DNA of 61,406 bases, counting the filler, from Dugesia japonica (taxonomy: Eukaryota), in the NCBI GenBank assembly GCA_001938525.1. It is 6 parts of 6 records of this genome, joined end to end, with 100 filler letters (N's around TTAATTAATTAA, not from the genome) between each part and the next. Parts side by side here need not be neighbours in the genome. Positions count along the whole stretch, not along the records: positions 39,333 to 52,735 come from MQRL01559164.1; 5 more parts are not named here. One strand, written 5' to 3'. Of the stretch, positions 3,058 to 57,720 are shown in pieces (within the stretch, counting starts at the first letter, position 1; every line of letters starts with the position of its first letter). The translations under genes were made by a program, and so were the position numbers. Below the pieces are notes generated by a model. It was not told the origin of the DNA. It ran no database searches and was given only the letters and a program-made list of their open reading frames with translations.

Positions 3058-4162
3058 TAGGGAATCCAAGTCCGGATTTCGGAATTCGGAAATTCCGCCT
3101 TGATTTTTAAATTTGAAATTCCGGAATTGAAATAAATCGAATTCCGGATTATTCGGATTTAATTTTTTTTGCTTTCTAACAAATTACACGGAATTCCAGC
3201 GACTGACGACATAAGTACAAAAAATATATAATTTTTGTAACGATTTTTTTTAAAAGTACAAACAGTATGCCATAAGTAATAAAAATATAAAAATAATGTT
3301 ATTCGTTTTGGCATTTAAATTTTTGTGAATTCACATTATAAATGTTTTTTCCTGTGTTTGGTTATATGTTATATTTTGGTGCAATAGCAAATTTGGTAAA
3401 CAGAAAATCATTATAATTTTAATAACGTCCTTGTGAGTGGTTTTGAAAAACAAGTTGAAATTTTTGTGTGATTGGTGATCTTATTTTTACAATCTTTTGT
3501 TTAAAAGAGAGATTTAAATTATTGNNNNNNNNNNNNNNNNNNNNNNNNNNNNNNNNNNNNNNNNNNNNNNNNNNNNNNNNNNNNNNNNNNNNNNNNNNNN
3601 NNNNNNNNNNNNNNNNNNNNNNNNNNNNNNNNNNNNNNNNNNNNNNNNNNNNNNNNNNNNNNNNNNNNNNNNNNNNNNNNNNNNNNNNNNNNNNNNNNNN
3701 NNNNNNNNNNNNNNNNNNNNNNNNNNNNNNNNNNNNNNNNNNNNNNNNNNNNNNNNNNNNNNNNNNNNNNNNNNNNNNNNNNNNNTTTTTTTTTGACTAA
3801 TATAGAAAAGTCTTTTAGATATTATAGATATATTATACTTAGAATTTTTTAATTTTAATATCTTTACCGCTGCTGGAGCATTTTCGAAAAAAAAGTCAAG
3901 ACTTAATGATCCTACATTTGAAAATTTGTGTATGTCCAGAAGCTTATTCAAAAAGCAAACCTAAATTTTTATTTTTAAATATTGAATTTGTTCTTTTTTG
4001 TGTTTTCTTTTTAATTTTAAATTTTTTTTAGTTTACTTTGAAATAAATTTATGGTGGTTAACTTGTATTTCGCTCTTGAGTTTTTATTTGTCTATTCCGA
4101 ATTTCATCTTACGACAATCCGAAAATTCCGGAATTCAGTTTTCGGTAAAAATGGATTCCCTA
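3058..4162 (+). mobile_element. Non-autonomous hAT DNA transposon
   Basis: 11-bp TIRs TAGGGAATCCA (3058-3068) and TGGATTCCCTA (4152-4162); 8-bp TSD CTCAAAAC/CTCCAAAC (7/8 match); subterminal TTCCGG-type repeats; internal remnant IFTAAGAFSKKKSRLNDPTFENLC (~3860-3930) resembles the hAT C-terminal dimerisation motif. Confidence 0.85.
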
Positions 4163-18169: not shown

Positions 18170-20480
18170 TGTCCCCCGTTTTAAGAAATTTTTTGATATT
18201 CTCTACGTTTCTTATCTGTGTCTGCCATTTCGTCTGTCGTACTTTTCCTTTGATCTTATAGGGTCCTTCAAAACGATCTTGGTTTTTTTTTTAACTTTTT
18301 TTTTTGACCTTACCACTAACCTTGAATTGTCTTTTGGTTAATATCTTTTTATCGTTATCTTTTTGCTCTCTTTAAGAATCTGTTTCGTACCATATTTCTC
18401 TGCTCATTTGCTTCCCAAATACGATTTCAGCTGGGCATTTTCCGATGGTTTTCTGTTTTTTCAAAATAAATTCTCGGCAATACATCAGCTCAATCAGAGG
18501 TTTTCTTTTAATTAAGTGTCGCATTTATAATATTTCACATAGTTCTAAACTGTGTATTGATTTGTCTATTTGTGTTATGATGATATGGATTCAAAACCAT
18601 CAGGGTAATTCCATATTCAGCTGCAAAATCTTTCATTTATTTAGACTCAAAGGCTCTTTCACAAATTTCTCTTTGACACCTAAACTTTAATATCCATTTC
18701 TCCAATACTGCTTTTCTTATGACATCTTTATCTTGTTTTGACATTAATATCAAGGTTACATACTTACTTCATCGATCTATTATACCAAGAACATATTTTA
18801 CGACCTCTATTCTGCGGCAGTGGTCCACACATCTTTAAATAACAGTTCAAACATTTTGGCTGGCTGCGTCATTTTTGCTTTTTCCTTAGTTTTTGTTTTT
18901 TAACACTTTAGCTTTCTGGCATGTTATACAGATTTGGATAACCTCTTGTATTTTGATCTAAAAATGTTTCGTGTTATATTTATGTTTCATATACTCTGTT
19001 ACTTTTTCTGCTTTAGCATGACACAACAGCTGGTTTATTATCATTGTTACGCCTTCTACTTTATCATCAGGTATCCATGTTCCTTTATCATTTTCACTAA
19101 AATTGCCTTGTTTTTCTTGAATATCTGTATTTAAAATCCTTGTTGTTAATTTTCCGCTTTTGGGATCTTCATGTAACATTAGACATTGTTCACATGTATC
19201 GCATTTACTTCTTGACAATATATCCGCATTTTTTAAAAGTGATCCTTTTCTATATTCCAGTTTAATATCTAGACTGCTCAAATAATTAATCCAAGTTTGA
19301 AGCGGTGATGTGCTCTGTTTCTTATTATTTACCATAAAAGGGATAATTTTATGGTCTGTTCTAAGGACAAATCTCTTTTTATATATATAATGTTTGAAAT
19401 GAATACAAAAGTAGTACAAAAGTAGTACAAAAGTAGTCATTGCGTGTAACCCATATGCAATTACTTTTCCTTGTCGATTGTTGTCCCTTTAAAATAGTAC
19501 TGCACCAATCGTGCCGTAAATTTCATCCGTGCCTAAAAAACATTCTCTATTTATATCTGAAAAACACAATATTAAAGACATTATTAGTGCTTCTTTCATT
19601 ACATTAAAAAAAATTTCTAATTGGTAAACCCATTCAATTTTTCACACGTATCTTTCCAATTGTCTCTAATGAGCTGTTTTTAGCGCAATGCAATCGTTCC
19701 GCGCTTTTCCCCGAGTCCACTAAATCTTTTCCTTTTCATTACATTTATTCCTGTTCCTGAATCTATCAAACAAACAAGGAAACTCTTCACGCTTGATCAC
19801 CACTAAAATGCTAGGTCTCCTGTGCATTTTATCATATAAAATTTTTACATTTGGTTTCTTTTCAATTGTTCAAATTATTTCTACTTTGTTAACTTCTGCA
19901 TCATTGAAACTTTCTCTTTTTAGGAATCTGTAAACTTTGTCTCCAACTTTGCTTACCTCATTTCATTTTTCGGCCTCCTGAGGATAATCAAACAGCATCT
20001 TGTTTAATGAATGGCTACGACCGAATTCTCTAATGATGTAGTCCTAATTTTTGGGTATTCTTTTCTTGAATCTTCATTTTCTATTATGTACCCAGAAAAT
20101 ATCTCTTCATGGTCATCATTCTCTTCTTGAATGGCATGGATTTGTTTGGTCCGACTCCAATCTTTTGTCCGCTTTTAAAATTGGATCTTCTCTCTTCTAA
20201 TAACATTCTTCTGCTCTGTGATTTGGTCTTTTACGTCTACCGCATACAGTTTCTGTGCACATTCTTTTGATATGACCAATTTTACCACGCAACATTTTGG
20301 TGGTTTCTTGTATGAACAATTTCTACTTAAATGCCCTTTCTTGTGGAAAGTCAAACATTCCACTTGAGAATTTTTTGAACACTCTCTATTTGCATGCCCA
20401 TTACTCTGGCATGTACAACACTGTGGTTCTGTTCTTTTCGTATTTCTCTCGATATTTTTCTCCTCTTTCCAGTATGTTAA
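18170..20480 (-). mobile_element. Degenerate Ty3/Gypsy element (gag CCHC, protease, RNase H, integrase; RT mostly deleted)
   Basis: KKGHLSRNC knuckle; RNase H YFCIHFKHY..FVLRTDHK..LEYRKGS...ADILSR; integrase zinc finger and core. Same family as 52940-54400. Confidence 0.9.
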
Positions 20481-20585: not shown

Positions 20586-21935
20586 NNNNNNNNNNNNNNN
20601 NNNNNNNNNNNNNNNNNNNNNNNNNNNNNTTAATTAATTAANNNNNNNNNNNNNNNNNNNNNNNNNNNNNNNNNNNNNNNNNNNNGAAACGATTGAGATT
20701 TTGCCAAATATTTAAAAATGTAATACGTATTGTTGCAGAGTTTAAACTCTATAAATAAAATTTTCTATAATTCTGATTAAAGTTCTATGAGAATAATTAA
20801 CATTCAAGTCTTGACAAAAATTATAAATCGGAATCTGTGTAATTGAGCTACATTTGCCCATGGACATTTTTAAAAATCGCAATTTACATAAATTTCTTTT
20901 TCATGAAATTTNNNNNNNNNNNNNNNNNNNNNNNNNNNNNNNNNNNNNNNNNNNNNNNNNNNNNNNNNNNNNNNNNNNNNTTTTATATATATCGTTATCC
21001 TAATTAATTTTTATTTCACGTCTTTTTCTCTGGATCACTATATTTTGTAAGGAAATATCTAATAATATTAAAGTGTATATCTTATAAGTGAAATAACTTA
21101 AATGCTATAAATATTATTTTTAAAATTTTTTCCATAAAAATATTGGTGTTTTTCGTTATTTTCGGATTACCATACTTTTCCATATTTATTATAATTTTTT
21201 TAAAAAGAATTATGAAATATTAAACAATTTATTAGTAAAATAATTACAAACAAGTGTGCGTTCTCATTGAAAACCATTTATTAAAATAAACTTAACTATT
21301 TAAAAGATTTTCTAAATTGCGATTTCTTTAATTTCATGATTTGAATTTCTTAGTATTATTATAACATAGGCGCTATCAAATTGAAAAAACATTTGAAAAT
21401 CTGAAAGAGTTTCATTCAAACAATTCGATTGAAGTAAATATTGCTGTTATAAATTTATTACAATTTATTCAATATTTATTAGACACCTTTCAGTCTTAGA
21501 CGCAAAAATCTTGCCAAAAACAAATTATGATGCGAATATTATCGATATTCCAATTATTAACAGAGTCATATTTATAAAAATATTACCCATTTTTTTTAAA
21601 ATAAAGTTTTTTTATGTTGCATCTATCAATTTGATGAACAGATTTATTTTTTGATAATGATCTCTAAATATTTTAGATATTTAATTAAAATTATTTGAAT
21701 TGTTGTCAAATAAGTATGTCAGATTATGGGTTTTAATAAAATTGCCAAAGACGTTACTTTTCTTTTCACAAATAAATGATTTTGTTGATGTTAATTTTTA
21801 TTTGATATTTTTGATTATTAATAATTTCCATTGATTCCATTGAAATGAAATCTTTTTTTTGTATGAATCCAATTATAACTTAAGTGTATCTCATAAACTA
21901 AATAGTAATAGTTTTTATAGAATAAGTTAAATACA

Positions 21936-22083
21936 TTTTATAATTACAATTATTGTGAGAATAATTGTTGGACTTAACCATTGATCGCATTTGAGATTTC
22001 ANNNNNNNNNNNNNNNNNNNNNNNNNNNNNNNNNNNNNNNNNNNNNNNNNNNNNNNNNNNNNAGCCTTTTCTTATTTTAATGA
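21936..22083 (-). mobile_element. Short Penelope-like fold-back insertion (family A)
   Basis: 12-bp TSD AAGTTAAATACA (21924-21935 / 22084-22095); shared family tail; inverted arm ending TTTTAATGA after the N gap. Confidence 0.75.
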
Positions 22084-22262
22084 AAGTTAAATACAGTAGA
22101 AAATATTTCCAAAGTCAATTTATATGGGGCTACTCATGTATTACGTGCATACTGAGAGGATAGTTGCATTTAAAAGATTTTGAATACAGAGAGATGGAAG
22201 GGTCTTATCTGAATATGCACGTATGCATAAATTAATATATAACCCAATTAACAATATTATTA

Positions 22263-24120
22263 CAGTAAAGTCTCTGTAAATTTCTGCTCTCTAATCCTAC
22301 GTAAATATTCTATAATTCGCCACTATTTTTAGTAAAAAATTACAAAAATTATGTAATACTAATTTTGTATTTTTTCAAAAATTTATTTTTACTCATTATT
22401 TTTTTAATAATTTTATTTTAGTTTATTAAAATTTTAGAATAATAAACAAAAGAAAACATGTCGAATTAACAAAAAAATAAGAAATTGAAATTTAAAGATA
22501 CTGCAATATTCGTCCAATTTCCGATAACAGAGTTGCCAGTATCTTTTCAAAGAAATTTCATAAAGCCATCTCAAGAAGATCAATTAATGATATAAGAAAG
22601 AAGAAGAACGAATTTTTAGGAAATATGAATTCAGAAATTATTAGTAGATTTAGAACACCAATTTTATAATTAAAATTATTGTGAGAATAATTGTTGAACT
22701 TAACCATTGATCGCATTTGAGATTTCATTAAAATAAGAAAAAGCTTCGATCAAAATAAAATTCATTTGTAAAAAAGTTCAAATTTTCTACTATAGTCTTC
22801 TTCGTAGAACACCAAATTTGAAATTTGAAGAAATTGATACTTTTCTATCAAGTTGGATAGATAATTTAGAGATGGTTGATGCAATTGTAACAGATAATTT
22901 ATTATTTGAAAAGCACTATAGTTTGCTTAAGCAGAAAAGATTGTACATTTTAAAGCATCAAAAGGATGTCTAACTAAATTTAAAGTAAGGCATGAGTTAA
23001 AGCTTTAAATGGAGAAACTTTTCATATAATGTCTAATAATTATTCGGAATTTTTGAGTGAGTTAACAACAAAAATAAACATCTCTGAAGAAACAATATTT
23101 ACAATGCTGATGAAACCGGAATATTTTATAAGTTGATTCCATCTAAAAGTTTCTATAAAACAATACGTACTGACTTTAAAATATTGAAAGCTCGGCTTTC
23201 AGTTTTATTTGGTGTGAATATGACAGGAACAATCAAAAGAAAACCTTTAGTCATTGGAAAATTTCGAAATCCACGATATTTTAAGGGATTCGATCCAAAA
23301 GAACTAGTCAAATACAAATATTCATCTAAAGCTTGGATAACCGCAGAAATATTTAATAACTGGTTGTTAGAAAGAAATCTGGAATTAGAAAAGAAATCCA
23401 AAAAAGTGTTACTAGTGATTGATAATTGACCTGCACACTCAATTGATGTAATTTCGCGAAGCAATGAAGTTTAAATATTTGACACGAAATTCAAGTTCAG
23501 TGATCCAATCTTTGGATCAGGATATTATGAAAACCTTTAAATCACACTTTTTGAGTAAAATATTGCGGGATATTGTTGAACAGATTGATTGTGGTAAAGA
23601 TACATTTATAGCATACAAAAATGTTACAGTCAAAGATGCAATAATTTACACGCATTTTGCATGGGAAGAAGTTAGCAAGGCAACAATTGTAAATTGTTTT
23701 CGTCATGCTGGTTGGAAAAATGCCCAGGATGCATCGTTTGAGTTTGAAAATTATAGTATTGAGNATTTTGAGGAATTTATTTTAAAAGTTAAAATTAATT
23801 ATCCAGTTCTTAAAGATGAATTCTCTTTCTTATGTTATGATGAAAATGATATATTATTAGAACAAGCCGAGGAAAACAAGAATTCTTTGGAAATGGATTT
23901 AAGTTTAAAAACGAAGCAGATTATATTCAAGATAGTATTGTAATGCAATTTATCTCAAAAGAAAATGCTAATAAGGCACTCTAAACTCTTAAATATTATT
24001 TTAATCAGCCTTATAACTTTGACTTGAAAGGTATTTCAGTAATTGATCAAATAATCAAAGCATTAAAGCAAAAGGAAAAGTGCACCAGCTTAGAAATGTG
24101 GGTTTATAAAAAAAAGTTTT
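22263..24120 (+). mobile_element. Tigger/pogo DNA transposon with pseudogenised CENP-B-HTH/DDE transposase
   Basis: TA|CAGTAAAGTCTC left end; HTH region; YNADETG; RKPLVIGKFRNPR; KAWITAEIFNNWL; VLLVIDN; SSVIQSLDQDI; WEEVSKATIVNCFRHAG. Confidence 0.92.
22662..22804 (-). mobile_element. 5'-truncated Penelope-like insertion (family A) inside the Tigger transposase
   Basis: 11-bp TSD TAGAACACCAA (22651-22661 / 22805-22815); shared tail; truncated within a hammerhead motif (22776-22804). Confidence 0.8.
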
Positions 24121-28027: not shown

Positions 28028-30540
28028 TTAGTCAAAAAGGAAGGTTCTTATTGTTTTTATTTTAGGCGGGTCAGTTCTGAAACCCTCACTGCTAATTAAG
28101 TGTCCAAGAAATTTAATTTCTCTTTGAAGAAATTGACAATTTTCTGGATTAATTCTAAGACCAGCTTTCATTAATTCTATCAATACTCTTTCAATTATTT
28201 CATAGTATTGATCTTTATTGTTCGTAAATATCAGAATGTCGTCAAGATAAACCATGGCTCCATTGATTCCGCCTACAACTTTTGTCATCATCTCTTGAAA
28301 TGTCCCTGGTGCCTCTGCGATGCCAAATGGCATTCTATTAAAACAATATTGTCCATACTTCGTTGAAAACGCCGTTTTTTCTTGAAATTCTTCTTCGATC
28401 TCTACTTGATAGTATGCATTTCCCAAATATATTAAACTGAAATATTTCGCTGCATCTAACTTGTCCAGCATTTTATCGACATTAGGCATCGAAAAGGCTT
28501 GTCTTTTCGTTACTGCATTTTATTGTCTAAAATCCAAACATATTCTTATGTCCTTCTTTTTCTTTTTTCAAACACAAATCAGTGAGATATTCCATGGAGA
28601 GTTGCATTTCTGGATAATATTATTCTCGAAAAGGTTTTGGATAGCTTCTTCAATTTTAGATTCTAAGTTCATTGGTTACCTGTACGGTTTTACATTGATT
28701 GGTTTGTTCTTGTGATTATTTTGTGACTTGTCAAATGAGTGCGTCCTACATCCTATTTATCTGCCATAAAAGCATCTTCTTTAGTTTCAAATATTTTCAA
28801 TAATTGCTGATCCTCTTTAATTTTCAAATTATTTTTTGGTCTTGTCAATCGCACTCCTTTTTAAATTTGTCTTCCAAATTTTGCTTCAATAATGCAAATT
28901 TAATTTTCGACTTTTTATTATCCGTTTTGCTATCCAAAAATCATCTGCATATCTATTCCTCCTATCAGATCTGGTCTTACTCTTTCAGCAACTAAGAAAA
29001 TAATCTCTTTGCAAACTTCATCAATTATCACTCCAGTTCTAACTTTTCCAACAATTTCAAGTGTACTGTTGTTTGCACAACGCAATTTTTCATTATTCAT
29101 TTCTAAATAAACTTCTTGTAATTTATTTAAACAACTCAAACTCATCACGTTATTTTGAGCCCATGTATCTAATAGACATTCGACTTTATTTCCTTGAATT
29201 GATACTGTCACACTTGGTCTCCCTTGCAATTTATGGTGCGAAATATTTGTTTTCTTTTCTGCTTCAACTGTTCCAACCTATTCTACTTTTCTATCATCCG
29301 CAAAGTTTCCCCTCTTTAAGAACCTGGATACTTTTTCTGAAACTTTTCCGATTTCATCCTATTTTTCGACCCCTTGAGGATAATCAATCACTTCATTTAA
29401 CAATGGATGGCTCCAACCAGCTCCTCTACTAGTAAAGCCCTGCCTCTTGGGTACTGCCTTTCAGAATCACTTTCATACACTTCTACATATAAAACGTTTG
29501 TATTGTAATCTTCATCTTTAATCGCATGTATTCGATTGTATCGCTTTCTCGATCTTTCTGCAGTCATAAATTTCTTTCTTGTTCTTTTTATTTTCAAATT
29601 TGTGTAACACTCTTCTGCCCTATGTCAACCATTACCACATCGTTTACACCTCACTTCTTGACATAACTTTCTTATATAGCCAACTTTTCCACAGCCAAAA
29701 TATTTTGTTGGTTTTTTATTTGAGAATCTCGACTTGTATGTCCTGTTTTATGACAAGTTCAACACTATACTAATTTTTTCCACGGACAATTTGCTTTAGT
29801 ATGACCGATCTGATGACACAACCAACATTTAATATTTTGTTTTTCCTTGCTTTGATTCACATGTCTATTAACGGTATGATTTACAGGTTTCTGATAATTT
29901 TGACTTGTAACTCTCGCGTAATTTCTAACTGCATTAACTTGATCTCTGTTTTTCTCTACTCGATCTACTAAAGTCATTGTTTCTTCAATTTCTTCTATAT
30001 TCTCTCGTTTTCGCAACGTCACTTCTTCCTCAAATTTTTTGTTATCTGAATAATATACTAGCATCTTTGCAACCACTTTTTCTTCGGTAAACTCTTTATT
30101 TGTAAATAATCTTTTTACTAAATCTTTTAAATTTTTAAAATAAACTTGAATATCTTCATTTCCACGTCTGCAGGTAAACAAATTTTGAAAATCTGTGACA
30201 AAATCTTTCTTTTTTTCAAATGCCATGGGTAAATGAGCCTGGAAGCCTTCAACGTTTTCAACGTCTTTACATATTCTTCCAACAAATCATCATCTAACAA
30301 ACAAGAGATTAATCTCTCTTTTTGTTTCACCTGGATGATGTTTTTAGCTTCAAAATACAATTTTCACCGCTTGATAAATTTCTCAATATCATCTCCTCTG
30401 CAGAACACATTCGGCAATTACTTTTCTGTAATAGAATCGGTATTTATCGCTGCCACCATGTTAGGTAGTTCTTCAATTGATAACTTATTTTCAAAATCAC
30501 AACTATTTTTAGACAACTATTTAATTTATTTTATATAATT
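28028..30540 (-). mobile_element. Ty3/Gypsy element: LTR end, PBS, gag (CCHC), protease, RT; 3'-truncated
   Basis: CWLCHQIGHTKANC; VECLLDTWAQ (catalytic DTG mutated); RMPFGIAEAPGTFQ; YLDD; IKFLGH. The LTR 5' boundary is not resolved. Confidence 0.93.
30448..30458 (-). promoter_or_regulatory. Primer-binding site (tRNA-Leu-like)
   Basis: TGGTGGCAGCG immediately after an LTR-like ...CTAACA end and just before gag. Confidence 0.7.
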
Positions 30541-39392: not shown

Positions 39393-39415
39393 TAATGAAA
39401 ATAATATAATAATAA
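39333..39415. repeat. (TAA)n microsatellite
   Basis: Direct reading. Confidence 0.95.
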
Positions 39416-39650
39416 CAATGTCTAATATATTTTTTTAATGTCTAATACATATAATTTTGTCTCTATATTTTGTCCTACCACCTATTTGTACAGGAAGATC
39501 TCATTGGGATTACGTTTTCTAACAGTAATAAATAAATCTCATCAGATATTTGTTTATTTTTATTGAAAACCTCAATTTGTAAAACTAAATCTTTTTTTTT
39601 CATTAAAATAAGAAAAGGCTTCGATCAAAACAAAATTTATTTGTAAAGAG

Positions 39651-39684
39651 ATTCAAATTTTCGACAATACTCTTCTTCAAGAAC
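39651..39684 (-). ncRNA. Decayed hammerhead motif (family A, inverted arm)
   Basis: GTTC-TTGAAGA-AGAGTATTGTC-GAA-AATT-T-GAAT. Confidence 0.55.
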
Positions 39685-39905
39685 ATGTTGGCTTCTTGAG
39701 ATATTCAATACTCAATTCTTCAAATTTTATCGCAATTTTATTGGTTGATTTTTTTTATACTTTAATTTTAAATTTTAATAAAAAAAGAAATCACTAAAAT
39801 TTAAAATTAAAAGTATAAAAAAAAATTAACCAATAAAATTTCAATAAAATTTAAAGAATTTAGTAACAAAGATTTGTTGTATTGAATATCTCAAGAAGCC
39901 AACAT

Positions 39906-39940
39906 GTTCCTGAAGAATACTTTTGTCGAAAATTTGAAAC
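39906..39940 (+). ncRNA. Minimal hammerhead motif (family A)
   Basis: GTTC-CTGAAGA-ATACTTTTGTC-GAA-AATT-T-GAAAC; the three-copy consensus gives stem II GAC/GTC and stem I GTTC/GAAC. Confidence 0.65.
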
Positions 39941-40994
39941 TTTTTACAAATAAATTTTATTTTGATCGAACCCTTTTCTTATTTTAATGAAATAATCATC
40001 TCAAATGCGATCAATGGTTAACTGTCCAACAATTATTCTCACAATAATTCTGTTTGTAATTATAAATCTTCTTTACTAAACTGTTACTTTATGACACAAA
40101 ATTATTGACAGCAAACAGATACAAAATTTGATTTGAAACTGTTTTATTTTACAATCAAACTGAGATTAGCTATCATGTTTTTAAGGCTCTCTATATTATC
40201 GACGAGATAATTGAATAATTTGACGCGAAAATCATTTTCCAACTCACAGATACACTCATATATCAAACACAAAATGATCAAATGAACCAATGATTGCATA
40301 GGATTGTACAACACAATTCCATCAATTGATCTCACAAACATGATTCGTCATTTGACTGAATCAATCAATGAATGAATGATTTATTATTGAATATTAATCG
40401 GTTCAATTTGAAAATATCAGATCATATTTCCAAACTAAATCATCAAGCAACGACTATACAAACGGGTATTGTGAAATTTTGCAAGGTCAATTCAAGTCAC
40501 TGTTATCAAATAAATGAAACAATCAATAAAAACCTAAAGACAAACATCTCATTATAATGATTCGACTGATATTGACTGATCATATGATAGAAAATGAGGG
40601 AATCTTGAGAGAACATAATGATAATGCATATTATGATGTCATTGATATCGAAGACTATCAATTTTCACTAGATCAATCTTAATAATATCTGTCGTTCACG
40701 ATCCATCATATTGAATCAAGATCAAACGTATTTTACTAAGAGAAATTGTTTTAATTTTTAACTTTTAATACTGGGTTTTAATTACTTTTGAAATTAAACC
40801 TACAATTTGCTTTTTATAGCATGCTTTTCAACAACACGCGATTACAAACAAAAACTACTACTAAAAATAAAATTAGACTCTATATAGAAAATCTATCTTT
40901 AAATTTGTGAGATTTGTAGATGAACGGTATTTGATGACATTGAAATGAACAACTATAACCCTGGAGTAGCGCTCTTAATACGATTTAATCAATA

Positions 40995-41065
40995 TTCACA
41001 ATTACAAATAGAATTATTGCGAGAATAATTGATGGACAATTAACCATTGATCACATTTGAGATTA
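40995..41065 (-). mobile_element. Isolated family A 3' tail
   Basis: AATTATTGCGAGAATAATTGATGGACAATTAACCATTGATCACATTTGAGAT matches the shared tail. Confidence 0.7.
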
Positions 41066-41419
41066 TATTAAATTAAAATTTAAATTAAAATTAGCAAACT
41101 AGATAAGATTTCATACTTGATTGTGGATGATTTTCAGTGATAAAACAAAGGAGATAAGAGATAATATGGAAATATTTTATAAATTATGTAGGAAATTATG
41201 AGAAATAATTAAGTTTCATAAAACTTTAACATATTTGAAAGATTTTTATCAGTTGCGATTGACAATGAGTTTGCGGTGCTCGAAATCGTATACTTTTAAT
41301 GGGACATGTATATCAACAATGATAATGAGGAGATATTTGGTGGAAATGTGTTACATTTATGTGTAACAACCTTATTTGAAGCTGAAATTCTTATATAATC
41401 ACAGAAAATTATACAGGGT

Positions 41420-42930
41420 CACAAAGGATCATATAAAATTATATAAGATCATGCAAAATGATATAGTATCAAATAGGATTATACACGATCATATAAAATC
41501 ATAAATGATCATATAAAATCATAAAGGATCATACAGAATCATATTGGATCAGAAAATATCAAACAAAATAATATAGAATCATATAGAAATATCATACAAA
41601 ATAATATAGAATCATATAAGATCATATAGAATCATATAGGATCATATAAAATTATAAAGGATCATATAAGATCATAAAGGATCATATAATATCATACAGG
41701 ATCATATAAAATCATATAGAATAATATAGGATCATATAGAATAATATAGGATCATATAAAATCATATAAAATCATATAGAATAATATAGGATCATATAGA
41801 ATCATACAGGATCATATAGAATAATATAGGATCATATAGAATAATATAGGATCATATAAAAGCATATAGGATCATGTAATAAATTGAATAGGATCATGTA
41901 ATAAATTGAATAGGATCATGTAATAAATTGAATAGGATCATGTAATAAATCATAAAATAATAAAATAATTATATAAAATCGTTTAGGATCATACAAAATC
42001 ATATAGGATCATATAGAATAATACAAGATCGTATAAAATCATAAAGAATAATATAGGATCATATAGAATCATATAATATCATATAAAATCATATAGAATA
42101 ATATAGGATCATATAGAATCATAAAAAATCACATAGGATCATGTAGGATCATATAAAATCATATAGAATAATATAGGATCATATAAAATCATATAGAATC
42201 ATATAGGATCATATAAAATAATATAGGATCATAAAGAATAATATAGGATCATATAAAAGCATATAGGATGATGTAGGATCATGTAATAAATTAAATAGGA
42301 TCATGTAGGATCATGTAATAAATTAAATAGGATCATGTAATAAATTGAATAGGATCATGTAATAAATCATAAAATAATAAAATAATTATATAAAATTGTT
42401 TAGGATCAAATAAAATCATATAGGATCATATAGAATAATACAAGATCATATAAAATCATAAAGAATAATATAGGATCATATAGAATCATATAATATCATA
42501 TAATATCATATAAAATCATATAAAATCATATAGAATAATATAGGATCATGTAGAATCATAAAAAATCATATAGGATCATAAAGGATCATACAGGATCATA
42601 AAGGATCATATAAACTCATACAGGATCATACATGATCATATAAACTCATATAGGATCATATAGGATCATAAAGGATAATATAAACTCATACAGGATCATA
42701 AAGGATAATATAAACTCATACAGGATCATATTGGATCATATAAATCATACAGGATCATAAAGGATCATATAAACGCATACAGGATCATATTGGATCATAT
42801 AAATCATACAGGATCATAAAGGATCATATAAACTCATACAGGATTATATAAACTCATATAGGATCATAAAGGATCATATAAATCATACAGGATCATATAA
42901 ACGCATACAGGATCATATAGGATCAAATAA
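41420..42930. repeat. 10-bp satellite (ATCATATAGG variants) with higher-order duplication
   Basis: About 1.5 kb of ATCATA(T/C/A)A(G/A)(G/A) units; the block at ~41860-42130 recurs at ~42280-42570. Confidence 0.95.
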
Positions 42931-43005
42931 TTTCATAAAAATAAGTGCTATATCTTATGATCCTATAAGAAAAAAAGCAACAATAATGACAACAATTATA
43001 TTTAC

Positions 43006-45849
43006 CTGATTATATGAAATTGCCTTCTTGTTGTTATTTCCACCACCGCTGTTATTGTTATTGTTGTTGTTGTTGTTATAGTGCTTATTGAGATGGTGAT
43101 GATGATGAGGTGGAGCTCGTATTGCTTGTTGCATGAAAGCTGCTGCTGCTGCGGCTGCTGCCGGATGAATATTGTGAGAGATATTATTGAAGAAAGATGG
43201 TTGCTGTCCCCCACCAATACAATCACTGTTGCGTCTCTGATTTGTCGACATCATGATTGACTGAGGCTGAGACGGATGATGAGGCATCAGCAAAGTATGA
43301 TGATGTGGAGGAGGAGCCATTTGCTGGAACGGTAGAGGAAGTTGAGGTGCTGGACCAGGAATAAGAGCAGGCCCGAATTGCGAGAAAATGCTAGAGTAAA
43401 CCAATCGTCGAATCATGTAAATAGCGGTCTCTACAGCTTCATAAGTACCAAATATTTCAACTGGATGAAGATCTTGATCACCAAATAGAGCAAGGTCAGG
43501 ATTGTGTAATGTTTCATTACTGTGACTGGAATTTCGTTTTTTGTGCTGCTGATGTGATTCTGCAGTCGATGTTGCGACAGGATGAGGAAGAGGAGGAGCA
43601 GGAGGAGCAGGAGGAGGAGACGAGGAAGCTGTTGCTGCTGCTGCAACTGCTGCTGCTGCTGTTGTTGTTGTTATAAGGTCATCATCAACTTCATCGTCAT
43701 TATCATCTTCATCAATGTCATTGTTATTATTAGTTGTGGAGGAGGAGGAATTGTTGACATTATTATTGTTTATTAATTCATTATTATTATTATTATCTTG
43801 ATTATTATCCACTGATTTTAGATTAGTATTTTCATCTGTAATATCAATCATTTGCTGTAGGGTTGGCGTTTGATTTATACATGACTTAAGTCGTGGGAAA
43901 CTGAGAAAAGTTCGCGATGACAACTGCAACTGTCGGATTACTTTTCCTTCTTTGCCAATCAACCTGCCCAGCATTAATTTTGGAACTCGTATGAGCACCC
44001 AGAGACGAACAGGTTGTTGCTGCTGCTGTTGTTGTTGTTGATGTATTTGGTGGTGATCATCATTTGCAATCGCATTATTAGTTTGTTGTTGTTGAGTTGT
44101 GTAACAAATACGAACTCTCGAGAAAATATGAGTCAACGCACTGCACTGACTCGGTGCGCTCCCCTTGATCGTGATCAGACGCTCATTCAACTGCTCGTCC
44201 TTGACAACACTCATCCAACACTCTGGGACCGGCTGTTTCCGATAGGTGTGCACCGCCGGTACCGACTCGATCACGCCGAGGTTACTCTTGCTAATCTGAA
44301 TGTACGTTCCAGTTTCCGCCATGATCCTGCGGACACTCTTGCCCTCACTGCCGATAATCGATCCAGCGCAGATTTGCGGGATCCTCACGTAGAGATTCTC
44401 GTCCAATTTGAGATTGTCAGGCCAGTTTGGGTTGGCCTTGTGCACGATTCCTGATCCGATAATGCTGGCGTGCGGTGGCGGCGGAGGCGGGGGTGGAGGA
44501 GGCGGCAGAGCGGGGGGTAATCCAGAATGATGGTGGTGAGGATTATGATGATTCCTACGTTGCGATTCTGCGTCTGGTGCGTACATCCTTCCGAACAAGC
44601 TGTTCATTTCCGCCGTCGCTCGAGGCGGCAAGAACGAATCGTCCTTCGCCATCATTCGTGGACACGGTTTCTGTGCGTTATCCTCCGATACACATTGTCG
44701 GATCTTGTCGGAGATCAATTTCTCTGCTTCCAATAACGACGCCAGTCCTCCTCCGCGACAAGAAATGATCCGATCGAGACTGATCACATGCGGTTGTTCA
44801 CTCAGAGTCGTGATTGTCGGCACATTCGACACGTGAACTTGGCTCCCCGACTTGCATCTCACCCAATTCAGAAATCTTCCTTCCTTTCCGATCAATCTCG
44901 CGCAAAATCGATCCTCTGCTAACAATCCCATATTCGGTTCCTCTCTTCCTTGTTCCTTCGATTCCTGGGTGCACAATTGCATAATTTCACTAATAGCTGC
45001 ACTGCATTTCTCTGGTTCACTCACAATAAACACTATTTGACTCTCTCCCCTGCTTGCGCTACTTCCAGCCATTATCTGATCGGTATTGTTATCCCCGTTC
45101 CCACCTTTTCGATTACAACCGGAAAACATGTAATTATTCAACCCAAACTGACTATACGGTACACTTTCCCGTTTTATATCGATTTTAGCGCCAGTATTTG
45201 CAGTAATTTCCTTGATTTTCTCACCTTTTCTACCTATTAGCGGACCCACTAATTCTGAATTTATCAATAATCTCACAGGATAATTCGAAGTTTTAATCGG
45301 ATTATTTTTCACCATTCCATCTGATTTCGGTTTTCTTTGATTTATTTCATTGTTAATTTGATTAATTTTGTTATTAATCATTGATTGAGATGGTTGAGTA
45401 TGAGTATGATTAATACGCATATTATTCATGTAACTGACATTATTTGTGCCATAGGTTTGGGAAGCAAGCGTATTTAGAGCTCCAAATGTATTTGGAATGG
45501 AATATAATTGATTCTGAAGAAATGGAGGTGCATTAAATCCCATATTAATCAAAGTTTGATTAGCTGATTGAGACACTGGAATTTGCGGTGATATTAAATT
45601 TACCAATTGTGGTAAAATATTCTGGGCAAGATGACTGCCAGAAGAATTGTGATTTATAGATTGTCGAGTATTCAATTGATTATGTGAAAAGTTATTTCCG
45701 TTTTTGTTCATATCACCGGACACATTCAAAGGCCGCTATTTAATAAATAATTATAAATACAAAATATTCAATTTAGTTGAAAATGAAGTTTAAATAAGAA
45801 AATTCACTAATCTTACCAATTTTCTCGGGTTATAGAAATTTTCATTCAT
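43006..45849 (-). CDS. IGF2BP: IGF2BP/Imp-family 4-KH RNA-binding protein; exon 1 45817-45849, exon 2 43006-45735, 3' end unresolved
   Basis: Four KH GxxG loops (IGRKG, IGKEG, IGSEG, IGKEG); KH1 PVRLLI...PEKCSAA and KH2 LLAEDRFCARLIGKEGR match the Imp/IGF2BP pattern. 81-nt GT-AG intron after MNENFYNPRKL; candidate donor CAG|gtaaat at 43006, otherwise read-through to the stop at 42955. Confidence 0.88.
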
Positions 45850-50533: not shown

Positions 50534-51001
50534 ATGAAAACCTGGAAAATAATTGTTTTGATATCTTCTCTAGTATTAATTGGGGGAATTTTGTTGAATT
50601 CGGATTGTGTAGCTGATTTATTTCTCTCTTCGGTACCAAATGTAACCACCAAGGAATCATGGGGCCTTCGAAACATAAATGATAAAACGATTATTGAAAT
50701 TATAATAAAAGTAATATTTTATTTACAAAAGAATATTATCTTCTCTACTCAAAGGTTCCTATTGAAACTTTAAATAATCTATTCGAACGAATCAGACATC
50801 GATTGTCAGCTCCATCATTCTCGAATTCAAATTTTCATTATGGATTCAATTTAGAATATTTGAATAAAATCATGGATCATTGGTTGAATGAGTACAATTG
50901 GAATCACTGGGAATCAATAATCAATAAATTTCCCCAGTATTTCACGTCAATAAAGGGTTTACAAATTCACTATATTCACATCAAACCGAGTGTGAAACCA
51001 A
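50534..51001 (+). CDS. Microsomal/juvenile-hormone-type epoxide hydrolase, exons 1-2 (50534-50710, 50755-51001); partial
   Basis: N-terminal hydrophobic anchor; a 44-nt GT-AG intron joins in frame to VPIETLNNLFERI...FHYGFNLEYL..IMDHWLNEYNW..WE..INKFPQYFTSIKGLQIHYIHIKP (EHN domain). Confidence 0.82.
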
Positions 51002-51139
51002 GTAATTTATAAATATTGCAAAATCAAAACAATTTATTCAGTAAAATAACATAATAAATGCAAAATTTTACTTTTTATAAATATTATTCTTAATGATCAT
51101 TTTTCATTGGATGTGAGATTATATCAATTATAATTGTAT

Positions 51140-51750
51140 TGATTGTAAATTTATTGACAGCACTAATATTGAGAGTGATAATATTGACAGCGCTAATATT
51201 GACAGTGATAATGGTGAGAGTGATAATATTGACAGTGATAATATTTACAGCGATAATATTGAGAGTGATAATATTCACAGCGCTAATATTGACAGTGATA
51301 ATATTGACAGTGATAATATTGACAGCGGCAATATTGACAGTGATAATATTGATAGTGATAATATTGAGAGTGATAATATTGACAGCGCTAATATTGAAAG
51401 TGATAATATTGACAGTGATAATATTTACAGTGATAATATTGACAGTGATAATATTGACAGTGATAATATTGACAGCGGTAATATTGAAAGTGATAATATT
51501 GAGAGTGATAATATTGAGAGTGATAATATTGAGAGTGATAATATTTACAGTGATAATATTGAAAGTGATAATATTGAGAGTGATAATATTGAGAGTGATA
51601 ATATTGAGAGTGATAATATTTACAGTGATAATATTGACAGTGATAATATTGAGAGTGATAATATTTACAGTGATAATATTGACAGTGATAATATTGACAG
51701 CGATAATATTGACAGTGATAATATTTACAGCGCTAATATTGACAGTGAAT
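51140..51750. repeat. 15-bp minisatellite (AGTGATAATATTGAC)
   Basis: About 40 units; explains the spurious VIILT-repeat ORF. Confidence 0.95.
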
Positions 51751-52455
51751 ATGATTGATTGTATTGAACATTCTTTTGGCCTGCGAGATTCATTACACTT
51801 TTACAAAATATATATTTCGATATACATTTTTAATAATAAAACAAAAATTATATAAAACAAAATTATATAAAAATGTAAATCCAAAATATGTATGTACAGT
51901 TTATTTCGATTTTTGTTAACAATTATGTGTAAGAATTTACATCACTTGATTTCAGTTTGATAAAAGTTCTGTAAACAAAAACTTTGTTTTTAAAAATCGA
52001 ACTAATGTTGCTAGATTCTGATTTTTATTAAATTTGAGGAAAATAAGATTTAATTGTAGTCTTATTTTAATTTTAATGATTTCTTAACTTTAATATTCTA
52101 TATAGAAAAATAAATAAATTCATTAGAAACTATAAATTGTTTTTTTTGAAAAACCCGTTTTAATTTAGCATTGGAACGGATAATTAATGTAATAGTATAT
52201 TTTCATATAAAAAGTTATTTCGAGTTGCGACGTTTTGCTTGCGACGATTTTTTTCGGAACCAATTATCTTCGCAATGTGAGGTATTGGTGTATATATATA
52301 TATATATTACAATGTGCGTTATCATTATTATTATATTATCTATTTTTACATGTAAGAATAATAATAAACACAATAATAATAACTCATGTTACAATTTTTC
52401 ACTCCAAAAAATGTCTATAGATTTAGACTCTAAATCTAATGTGGTTATAATTTTA

Positions 52456-52939: not shown

Positions 52940-54400
52940 AAGACGAGAAATTACGGTTTGGACATGTAAAAATATAGGTCACGTTACCAGAAATTGCCCA
53001 GTAAATAAGAAGAAATGTTATATAATGTTTTCCAGATACAAATAGAGGATTTATTTTGGACACGGATGAGAGTTTCGATACGATTGGAGCAGTACTATCT
53101 CAAAAGGACAACAGTGAGCAAGAAAAAGTAATTGTAATGACGAGTCAAGAGAAAGGATATTGTACTACACGGAAAGAATTACTCGCAATTTACTACTTTT
53201 GTATTCATTTCCAACATTACTTNNNNNNNNNNNNNNNNNNNNNNNNNNNNNNNNNNNNNNNNNNNNNNNNNNNNNNNNNNNNNNNNNNNNNNNNNNNNNN
53301 NNNNNNNNNNNNNNNNNNNNTATTTGAGCAGTTTAGAAATAAAATTGGAATATAGAAAAGGATCGCTTCATACAAATGCGGATATGTTGTCAAGCTGTAA
53401 ATTTGATACTTGTGCACAATGTCTAATGTCACATGAAGATCCCAAAAGTAGAAAATTAAAAACAAGGATGTTAAATACAGTAGATATTCAAGAAAAACAA
53501 GGCAATTTTGGTGAGAATGATGAAGGGACATGGATACCTGATGATCAAGTAGAAGAGGTTATAATGAGGATACACCATATTTTGTGTCATGCTGGATCGG
53601 AAAAAGTAGCAGCGTATATGAAGCATAAATATAACGCGAAACATTTGTGGAGCAAAGTACAAGAGGTTGTTTGAAGCTGTATAACATGCCAGAAAGCTAA
53701 AATGTTGACAACAAAAACTAAAGAAGAAACAAAAAAGATGCAGCCAACCGAAATGTTTGAACTGTTATTTATAGATGTTTGTAGACCACTGCCGAAGACA
53801 AAAGGCCGAAAAAAATATGTTCTCATTATTATAGATCAATTCACTAAGTATATAGCCATGATAGCAATGACAGGACAAGATGAAGATACCATACGGAAAA
53901 CAATAATGAAGAATTGGATATTAAAATTTGGGAATCCCAGAGAAATTAGAGTTGATTGTGGAAGAGAATTTGAGTCTAAATCAATGAAATATTTTGCAAT
54001 TTAGCATGGAATTACCCTCAGGTTTTTGAGTCCATATCATCATAACACAAATGGATAAATCAGAAGATAGTTTAGAACTATGTTGGATATGATAAATGGA
54101 ACACTTAAAGAATGGAAAACTTCAGATTGGGCGGATGCATTCCCAGAGATAGAATTTACCTTGAATGCTACAAAACAGAAAACTATCGGGAAAAGCCTTT
54201 TTGAAATTGTATTTTGGAAGAGAATTAGCAGAGAAAAAAGGTATGAAAAAAATACTCAAATAGTGCAGAAAAGAAGGACCCTATAAGATCAAGACGAAGG
54301 CTCATGACAGACATTATATCCTGGAAGTTACAAACGGAAAAAGTCTTGAAAGAAACGTAGAGAAGATCAAAAAAATTCTTAATACGGAGAATATGAGTGG
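52940..54400 (+). mobile_element. Degenerate Gypsy element (gag knuckle, RNase H, integrase)
   Basis: GHVTRNC; YCTTRKELLAIYYFC; H..LCH...CITCQK; FELLFIDVCRPLP; IRVDCGREFES; SPYHHNTNG. Confidence 0.92.
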
Positions 54401-55489: not shown

Positions 55490-57720
55490 AATCTTTTTGC
55501 CTAAGTAAAAATAAGCAGAACAAGTCCTTGAAAAATAAGAAAAGAAAATCATATTTGAAATACAGAAATTTTAATCATGGTTAGACACTGAACTACTTTT
55601 TAAGTGAATACTTAGAAAACGTGTCTGTTTAATTTGTCAAGAGACTGTTTTCGTGAACAATGTTTCAAACACTATACGGCAATATAAGACTTGTCATAAT
55701 GTGATAGTTTCAGTGGAAAAGCAAGAGAAGATGAGGTTGTAAGGCTAAGAAATAGTTTGACAAAGCAGTCATCCATTTGCACTAGAAAAGTTGAAGAAAA
55801 TGACAGAAACACTCGTGCTAGCTATGAGGTGTCAAAAATAATTGCAGATATGATGAAACTTTAACTGATGGAGAAGTCTTCAAAGAATTATTGTTAAACG
55901 TAAAGGATGTTGCCTGCCCATAAAAAATAAAATTATTTTCCGCAATCAACCTATTAGCAAAAACAGTAACAAGATGAATCGAAGAGCTGGAATCAAATGT
56001 TAAAAGTGACTTGAAGGGCATTTTAAGTAGTTTGGATCATTACAGTATTGCTATCGATGAATCCATAAATATTAATTATACTGTTTAATTCATTTAATAT
56101 AAAGCTTTGATCAAAATTTTGGTTTTTTATTGATATTGGATAACAATTAAAAATTAAGAGTTCTTATCCAATATCCATAAAAAACCAAGATTTTAATCAA
56201 AGCTTTTATATTAAATGAATTCTATAAAACGATCAATGGTTATGTCCAACAATTATTCTCGCAATAATTGCAATTATACTGTTCAACTTGCAGTTTTTGT
56301 GAGAGGTGTAGCACAAACATTTTATATTGTGGAAGAATTTGTACAATTAGTTACTATGAAGTATATTTGTACTGGAGTAGAAATTTTTGAAAACATAAAA
56401 AAATGGAGTAAAAAATGAATCTTGGTTTAACAAAGCTTGTTAGAGTAACCACCAATGAAGCACTAGCAATGGTTGGACAGAATAAGGCATATGTTACATT
56501 TTACCTTGAACACTCGGTATTCATAAAAAAAAGTATTAAACTTCATTGCATTATTCATCTGGATGCATTGTGTGCTAAATCACTTAATTTTAAAGATATG
56601 AAAGTAGTCGTCAAAACAGGGAAGTTTATACTGAAAAAAGACTAAATCCCCACCAGTTTCAACAATTTTTAAAAGACATTGAAGCAGAATATGGCAACCT
56701 TATATATTTTCTTTAGTAATTTTCACTGGCTTAGTTGAAGAAAAATGTTGGAACGAGAATATGCATTGAGAAAAGATATTTCTTTGTTTCTAGAGATAAA
56801 AGGTCAAGAAAAGTTTTACTTAAAAGCTCCGAGATGGATTGCAAAATTGACTTTTTTAGTGGATATGATAACCCACATTAACAATTGGAATCTTCAACTT
56901 CATAGAAAGAATAAACTTATATTTTAGATGTTTAGTCAAATTACTGTTTTTTATAAAACTTAATCTATGTGAATCACAACTTCAGATGCGAAACTATTCT
57001 CAATTTCCAAATTTCCAAAACCCCAAAAGAGAGAACATTTTAGTGAGATCTATTAAGGATTTTGATACAAGAGTTATCCTCCTGTTTTGATGAATTTGAG
57101 TAATATGAAAATTAATTTAAATTATTTGGTACTCCTTACAAAATTGTTGCAGACCAAATGGCAGAAGAATATCAGTTGGAGTTAATTGACTAACAACGTG
57201 ACAATTTATTGAAAGCAAAATTTCATTCCGAATCCACTGTTGATTTATACATGATATATTTATTGCCAAGAGGAAAATATAAAAACATTTCAAATAATGC
57301 AAAACATGTGTTATCGTTATTTTCAAGTACATACGGTTGTGAACAGCTTTTTTCAAAACTGAAAAATACTAAAATTTATTTAAAATAAAAGTTGCGTGAT
57401 AACCACCTAGATGATATTTTTTGCTCCTGACATCAAGAAATATATCATCTTGCGGGCAGATGCTTTCGCGAAATAAGCAGAATCAATTGTGTCATTAAAT
57501 TATGTCTTATTATGCATCGATTTTCGATTTCTAGCTTTATTACATTTTTAGTCTAAGAACAAAATTGAGTTGTTTTTGTGTTAGTCACAGTTTGTAATTA
57601 AAATCGTCTTGAATTTTATGTTTTTTATTAACATACAATTTTAAATTATATTTAGTTTTATGGTCCGTCTCTGTACACTGCCATAACTGATTGGCCCTCG
57701 TTGTCTAAAAAGGCTAACGG
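55490..57720 (+). mobile_element. hAT transposon, GTF2IRD2/SPIN-like transposase pseudogene
   Basis: VCLICQE zinc finger; YSIAIDES...QLAVFVRG; LHCIIHLDALCAK; FLVDMITHINNWNLQL; STYGCEQLFSKLK. Confidence 0.9.
56086..56271 (+). mobile_element. Fold-back insertion with family A-type tail interrupting the hAT transposase
   Basis: 12-bp TSD AATTATACTGTT (56074-56085 / 56272-56283); ~55-bp inverted arms; tail with CAATTATT-CTCGC-AATAATTG hairpin. Confidence 0.8.

Follow-up and report, generated by a model that had tools for sequence, protein, structure and literature searches.

Inverted pseudo-LTRs (pLTRs), one-sided tails, and opposed minimal hammerhead ribozymes are already in print as features found in Penelope-like elements (PLEs). 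A tail that covers the ORF start within a partial tandem has been described for Adineta Pen2a (PMC3846280), and pairs of hammerheads on opposite strands, 100-700 bp apart, have been noted in Schistosoma (PMC4209133). The promoter and start site of Penelope have been placed within the pLTR (PMC2377424). In Anolis, the protein of the PLE named PAc nicks and extends both target strands and starts reverse transcription at two internal sites that bound the tail (PMC11167929). The origin of the PLE inverted repeat and one-sided tail is still debated, and the sole biochemistry comes from one in vitro study. Stubs of this kind also carry an annotation risk, being mistakable for MITEs, miRNA hairpins, or new ribozyme parasites.

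Here, we analyzed a stretch of 61,406 nucleotides (the window), joined from six records of the 854-Mb, AT-rich genome of Dugesia japonica (assembly GCA_001938525.1). An initial annotation of the window had described a family of small fold-back insertions with opposed hammerheads, a fixed tail, and target-site duplications (TSDs) of 11-12 bp, and had interpreted them as an ORF-less, ribozyme-bearing non-autonomous system. Our analysis indicates that the fold-backs are end pieces (3' UTR/pseudo-LTR, minimal hammerhead, and first codons) of two autonomous PLEs, likely generated from twin nick-primed cDNAs joined head to head.

Results

Fold-back copies in the window

All five copies named by the initial annotation were located in the window, of which four were assigned to one subfamily, A, and the copy at 56086 to a sister subfamily, B. 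The features are listed below, beginning with the focal copy; E1 denotes the tail end and E2 the end at AATGAA.

39586..39597, plus strand: left TSD of the focal copy, 12 nt, one mismatch against 40063-40074
39598..39802, minus strand: inverted tail-less arm of the focal copy, subfamily A PLE 3' UTR/pLTR, ending at AATGAA (E2), from blastn to L011
39651..39684, minus strand: damaged minimal hammerhead of the focal inverted arm (C3U, stem II mismatch)
39795..39991, plus strand: tail-bearing arm of the focal copy, subfamily A 3' UTR/pLTR, 5'-truncated
39906..39940, plus strand: minimal type I hammerhead of the focal direct arm, core intact, G10.1 lost, helix I bulged
39992..40062, plus strand: tail of the focal copy, first ~20 codons of the PLE ORF, with a terminal stem-loop, ending at E1
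40063..40074, plus strand: right TSD of the focal copy, its first bases common to the element end
21924..22095, minus strand: subfamily A fold-back, centre in an N gap, exact 12-nt TSD, tail matched by tblastn with P0001 aa 1-25
22651..22815, minus strand: subfamily A single-arm copy, 5'-truncated within the hammerhead core, exact 11-nt TSD
41000..41079, minus strand: tail-only copy without an inverted arm, TSD not found
56074..56283, plus strand: subfamily B fold-back, arms of ~70 nt without the hammerhead core, exact 12-nt TSD
3786..3858, minus strand: sixth copy, a subfamily A 3' UTR piece that enters an N gap, 93% identical over 73 nt to L011

The initial annotation had credited three copies with an inverted arm; one is present at 21936, 39598, and 56086, and in each case it begins at the reverse complement of AATGAA. 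TSDs were likewise recovered at four copies, being exact at 21936, 22662, and 56086 (12, 11, and 12 nt) and 12 nt with one mismatch at the focal copy; a TSD was looked for at the 41000 copy and was not found. In the focal copy, the arms show 92% complementarity over their outer 117 nt, and blastn to the long copy L011 placed the end of the tail-less arm 23 nt farther upstream than that of the tail arm. The whole copy is predicted to fold into a single long hairpin of -194 kcal/mol with the hammerhead lying within the stem. A hammerhead had been assigned to each arm, and each arm indeed holds one, on opposite strands, but both are damaged: the direct hammerhead has lost its G10.1-C11.1 pair and gained an extra base in helix I, and the inverted hammerhead carries C3U and a mismatch in stem II. 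The arms of the 56086 copy end before reaching the hammerhead core.

The 56086 insertion recurs with both of its flanks on another contig (L181) at 97% identity, as an allele or a segmental duplicate. Gypsy-like LTR retroelement pieces with RT and RNase H-like frames lie in the window at 18360-19572 and 53020-54271, which are ~80% alike and in inverted orientation, and at 28031-30286. At 42958-45735, the minus strand carries a stop-free frame of 926 aa in which Asn, Gln, and Ser are abundant and which is probably a host exon; tandem arrays of period 10 (41300-42950) and period 15 (51000-51850) lie near it.

Abundance, target sites, and two fixed ends

Harvesting the family genome-wide through a 23-nt tail word yielded 13,318 exact matches and none for the reversed control, demonstrating that this abundant repeat is real and not a product of chance. 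TSDs of at least 10 nt (at most one mismatch, touching both ends) were found at 33 of 43 fold-backs, compared with 9.8% of 600 mispaired controls, in a set where a few rows are mis-parsed, one target is a microsatellite, and microhomology with the element ends inflates the lengths. The TSDs are therefore real, and they vary in length, typically between 10 and 13 nt. The target consensus consisted only of AT-rich flanks with A then T at the junction, with no motif. In subfamily A, microsatellite flanks adjoined none of 71 E1 ends and 4 of 77 E2 ends.

The end points of subfamily A were mapped at 93 of the first 100 listed matches to a 28-nt anchor that ends in AATGAA (1,406 matches in all); 18 of these 93 were censored by contig ends, and the anchor hides ends upstream of AATGAA. 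Among the matches listed, the 75 uncensored copies ended either at +1 to +9 (53 copies, 45 of them at +1 to +4) or at +48 to +72 (22 copies, 16 of them at 59-61), with none at +10 to +47 and none continuing into the ORF. For subfamily B, 87 of 100 listed matches were used and 12 were dropped for too little upstream DNA, with one more left out; among the matches listed, 69 were uncensored, with 48 ends at 0 to 14, two between, and 19 at 50 or beyond. As these samples are first-listed places on short contigs, long insertions are under-sampled. E1 and E2 lie ~59 nt apart, and the bimodal distribution in both subfamilies bears out the fixed inversion end that had been proposed, as opposed to random ends. 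By analogy with the Anolis element, in which such sites were measured, E1 and E2 would be the start sites of reverse transcription. The suggestion that the fixed inversion end may be a trace of priming on the other strand fits these data.

Two autonomous parents

The initial annotation had proposed looking for an autonomous RT and GIY-YIG partner with the same tail. Successive searches of the genome against itself, walking upstream from the tail, identified such a partner in the form of two sister elements, A and B. In subfamily A, the walk passed through an AT-rich 3' UTR of ~700 nt into a GIY-YIG endonuclease (EN) with CCHH and a Cys linker, then into an RT with YIDD, DKT, and GPSY motifs, and finally to the ORF start, where the hammerhead and the tail recur, the hammerhead directly before the ORF and the tail inside it. 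Pfam detected the GIY-YIG domain in the broken genomic piece (PF01541, E 3e-4) and missed the RT there; the RT was found in full-length relatives such as P0001, an 843-aa protein that is 76% identical over the RT piece (RVT_1, E 7e-7; GIY-YIG, E 3e-4). A PDB search with P0001 gave no match below E 0.3.

At six loci (L120, L121, L122, L127, L133, and L140), the junction from tail to ORF translates to the N-terminus of P0001, showing that the fixed tail consists of the ~20 codons with which the ORF of the next unit in a partial tandem begins; tblastn with P0001 also matched two of the tails in the window. RT, GIY-YIG, 3' UTR, hammerhead, and tail thus form one continuous sequence that leads on into the next ORF. 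In subfamily A, the tail-to-ORF junction occurs in exact form only 12 times. At first look, there were 2383 candidates at the 3' end and 460 at the ORF start, figures that are not copy numbers, and a drop of this kind is expected from 5' truncation; the copies of subfamily A form a smooth 5'-truncation series reaching back into the ORF.

The subfamily B anchor had 2,126 exact genome matches. In one B parent (L424), RT, EN, a spacer of 145 nt, hammerhead, and tail follow one another in order, and among 29 B loci the EN anchor was present in 18, with the hammerhead 137-148 nt later in 14 of the 18 and the tail in seven of the 18. RT followed by EN was seen in L079, L081, and L424, all broken genome copies; no intact autonomous copy was recovered, every ORF piece seen having stops or frameshifts. 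Partial tandems or pLTRs and inverted 5'-truncated copies occurred at L097, L108, L120, and L127 and in 33 fold-backs, and at L108 a direct pLTR ending at E2 is joined to the ORF. The initial annotation was right in recognizing a Penelope-like signature.

At L126 (1236-1844) and L139 (1930-2376), a non-LTR-like RT fragment in opposite orientation abuts the 5' part of the PLE ORF, the junction falling at the same place in both, either as a duplicated chimera or as a nested insertion; its N-terminal part gave a weak Tautomerase_2 match (E 0.001-0.003), below the cut-off. Near the ORF start of L130, a B-type tail-bearing arm stands inverted before a tail and an ORF start that are A-like, which may reflect a cross-subfamily or nested insertion. 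Further tail-sharing subfamilies, each with its own hammerhead variants, were present at L053, L153, L168, and L324.

Hammerheads and RNA reads

Conservation of the hammerhead core across the family was borne out in subfamily A, where 75 of 124 anchored regions fit a relaxed pattern and many others end before the motif. Among these 75, whose counts hold partly by construction, the first box was exact in 56, GAAA was exact in 61, the extra A was present in 73, and helix I was paired in 51. The features of a minimal PLE hammerhead are all represented, namely the CUGANGA and GAAA boxes, the extra base 9a, helices I and II, and a palindromic helix III. Between A and B, a G-C pair of helix I is replaced by A-U, and the palindrome AAUU gives way to AUAU, itself a palindrome, a pattern suggesting that the fold is under selection in the parents. 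Helices I and II are both present in the MFE fold of L127. Rfam hammerhead models expect a helix III that minimal hammerheads lack; an Rfam scan of 39400-41200 returned no hammerhead model at E <= 10, its best match being a plant miRNA model (E 0.014) far below its cut-off.

The opposed hammerheads cannot act as a dimer, because a transcript contains only one of them in the sense orientation and this one is buried in the long stem. RNA read ends, from fragmenting libraries, showed no pile at the predicted cleavage site. Genomic 5' ends of subfamily B were not clearly enriched there (9 of 61 at positions 33-40, with cleavage predicted at 34), and none of those of subfamily A lay at the predicted site. 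The idea that arms stop at the cleavage site, which arose from loci chosen for their likeness to the 56086 copy, was dropped following this weak result for B and its absence for A in unselected samples.

RNA reads on L127 had loose ends piled at E1 (291+72 reads in X22), and depth was ~900 on the tail compared with ~30 on the ORF, with reads in both directions, in agreement with stubs being passively co-transcribed. Over the ORF start (L127, 1664-1915), low-level reads with a strand bias of ~5-10:1 were seen in X22-X24, which would be antisense RNA if the libraries were dUTP-stranded.

Arm lengths and junctions

The 33 fold-backs from unselected samples had 25 different lengths. The tail arm was longer by more than 15 nt in 12 of them, the tail-less arm was longer in 10, and the two were within 15 nt of each other in 11, proportions that include four fold-backs fitting the reference copies poorly (gaps of 60-129 nt) and that later deletion at the palindrome centre could also produce. 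In a second set of 33 fold-backs, some of them chosen because they resemble the 56086 copy, the two arms belonged to the same subfamily in every case, and an arm's own partner had a mean rank of 0.28 among same-type arms, compared with the 0.5 expected; L151 and L182 were the only pair with near-identical bodies and a similar junction patch. Rare fold-backs (L284 and L029) bear the tail on both arms. At the junctions of three full-length B fold-backs (L302, L320, and L348), the 5' end and its reverse complement are repeated as a patchwork, resembling the templated insertions of end-joining repair.

We propose that the element protein would nick both target strands ~10-13 nt apart and that each nick would prime one cDNA, starting from the two fixed RNA sites E1 and E2. 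Joining of the two cDNAs head to head would then give rise to inverted arms with a one-sided tail. Two template regions of one source may be used, and the junctions may be closed by microhomology or patch repair. The copy-specific junctions and the finding that either arm can be the longer would favor separate priming of two cDNAs rather than snap-back or a master mini-element, and a longer tail-less arm follows if each nick primes its own cDNA. We found no paper stating such a model in the open-access literature on PLE twin priming or two templates.

The same PLE-stub origin could be combined with the route proposed earlier for Penelope, in which self-priming (snap-back) creates the inverted arm and endonuclease resolution creates the tail. 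Junctions here often sit on small palindromes or overlaps, and palindromic junctions are interpreted in PMC3846280 as self-priming on an antisense template; the tail is attributed to EN resolution in PMC8557442. Source variants common to both arms, the near-equal arms of 11 of the 33 fold-backs, and, if the libraries are stranded, the strand-biased low-level ORF reads in X22-X24 are also consistent with snap-back. However, snap-back of a tail-primed cDNA cannot make the inverted arm the longer one, as it is in 10 of the 33 and in the focal copy, and direct tandems also end at E2 (L108). We therefore regard snap-back as unlikely and prefer two separately nick-primed cDNAs.

A fixed 5' stop in subfamily B

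Among 61 uncensored arms of subfamily B, 23 extend beyond the hammerhead, and for 20 of them the end falls at positions 66-78, at an A-run just before helix I; one of the three arms continuing past this stop is the reference itself. In the unselected samples, 11 B fold-back arms end at 100-106 nt and none is longer, and L339 is a single-arm B unit with a 9-nt TSD at the 5' stop boundary. Subfamily A shows at most a weak cluster near the hammerhead (9 of 21 at 52-64). Given the Penelope start site within the pLTR, the simplest interpretation of the B stop is run-off from the mRNA 5' end, and the stop likely corresponds to the mRNA start. Each B mini would then represent a copy of the mRNA front, with priming at the tail's 5' copy and run-off at the 5' end of the mRNA. 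A fuller version, in which each fold-back represents two separately primed cDNAs from two fixed RT starts on one source and B primes mostly at the 5' tail copy and runs off the capped mRNA end, would make these minis SINE-like ribozyme units without a master copy; we offer it tentatively, at slightly less than even chance.

The proposal of a ribozyme-bearing non-autonomous system is not supported, as the copies line up collinearly with the 3' UTR and first codons of autonomous elements, and neither is that of an ORF-less family in its own right, given the 25 lengths among 33 fold-backs and the A truncation series running into the ORF. Among the fold-backs compared, no internal junction common to unlinked copies was seen apart from the near-identical pair in the second set of 33, and copy-specific junctions argue against a master mini-element. 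As for a 5' end distinct from that of the autonomous element, subfamily A has none, and subfamily B has the fixed stop without sequence of its own. This stop is the one point left for a non-autonomous interpretation, according to which the B minis (~165 nt, with a fixed 5' end just before the hammerhead) would form a true family, with short copies of their own as the source of transcripts and mobilization in trans. The clustering of 20 of 23 hammerhead-passing arms within 13 nt of each other, the 11 fold-back arms with their common limit, the L339 unit, and the ~30:1 ratio of tail to ORF reads (on a subfamily A stretch) would agree with such a family. However, the mini corresponds collinearly to the end of a B element that is abundant and bears an ORF, a mini-specific 5' sequence was not seen, the junctions are copy-specific, and the non-autonomous Chlamys PLEs described in PMC8557442 form pLTR tandems, none of which was seen here, making this explanation improbable. 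A more distant alternative, that the repeats are MITEs, Helentron-type DNA elements, or APE LINE ends, could draw on the terminal-looking inverted repeats and the 3' stem-loop; it disagrees with the variable TSDs of 10-13 nt, the one-sided tail, the 5' truncation, and the lack of poly(A), and is refuted by direct continuity with the PLE RT and GIY-YIG ORF, leaving it a negligible probability.

Discussion

In summary, the fold-backs are leftovers of a known kind of element and not a new self-standing ribozyme parasite. Our analysis adds two specific parents, counted ends at two sites, the symmetry of the arm lengths, and the 5' stop in subfamily B, which together make the mechanism of PLE integration testable. 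If the twin-priming interpretation is true, the genome would preserve the Penelope integration step in thousands of natural records and would lend in vivo, genome-scale support to double-strand 'twin' priming over the published self-priming model, and fixed ends alone would be no proof of a non-autonomous family.

The parents belong to the C-terminal EN+ PLEs, having a single ORF in which GIY-YIG comes after RT, a one-sided tail between two fixed ends, and variable TSDs in AT-rich targets. CCHH, with two Cys between GIY and YIG, is conserved (C760, C763, and H793 in at least 90% of 25 relatives) and is also visible in L050 and L067. The DKT motif and the CxCx5C linker are common to the parents and the Hydra clade, but the Hydra clade lacks CCHH, which the parents retain, and its preference for (TA)n targets was not found here; by the criteria given in PMC8557442, membership in the Hydra clade therefore fails. 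By eye, the nearest EN is that of PNL2_SM (short Cys linker, CxxC between GIY and YIG), which is listed directly below the Nematis rows in Fig. S2 of Craig et al. (PMC8557442). A likeness to a nematode match, P0038 (E 4.5e-14), is likewise by eye. A literature search found no named family for the element described here.

The hammerheads agree with the minimal hammerheads of metazoan PLEs reported by Cervera and de la Pena 2014 (PMC4209133) in a helix I of 4-5 bp, an extra base between 9 and 10.1, the G10.1-C11.1 pair, and the palindromic 15.2-16.2. They differ from these in a helix II of only 3 bp and, in subfamily A, in a U at the cleavage position, which is also common in the Hydra-clade hammerheads of File S2 (PMC8557442). 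Non-LTR retrozymes (bioRxiv 10.64898/2026.07.22.740005) are similarly small, ORF-less, PLE-related, and equipped with a type I hammerhead. However, retrozymes consist of head-to-tail tandem units with an intact hammerhead each, whereas the copies here are single or head to head, bear TSDs, and are often truncated within the ribozyme.

PAc, a Poseidon element of Anolis carolinensis (PMC11167929), has the same two fixed ends bounding a tail in the ORF start, the same AT-rich target, and a hammerhead in the pLTR. The ORF of PAc begins within the hammerhead, and its reverse transcription starts at +111-118, whereas here the hammerhead is located upstream of the ORF, at a distance of ~60-90 nt; a Cys linker precedes the EN here and is absent from Poseidon. 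Pen2a of Adineta vaga (PMC3846280) and the scheme in Fig. 2 of Craig et al. 2021 (PMC8557442) show the same inverted 5'-truncated pLTR placed head to head with an optional one-sided tail, the same extension of pLTR and tail over the first ORF codons (22 aa in Pen2a), TSDs of 8-10 bp, and partial tandems. In contrast to these, the tail here is ~59 nt (30-40 nt in print), the 3' UTR is ~700 nt in A and ~200 nt in B, and most insertions in this genome, in their thousands, are only pLTR-sized.
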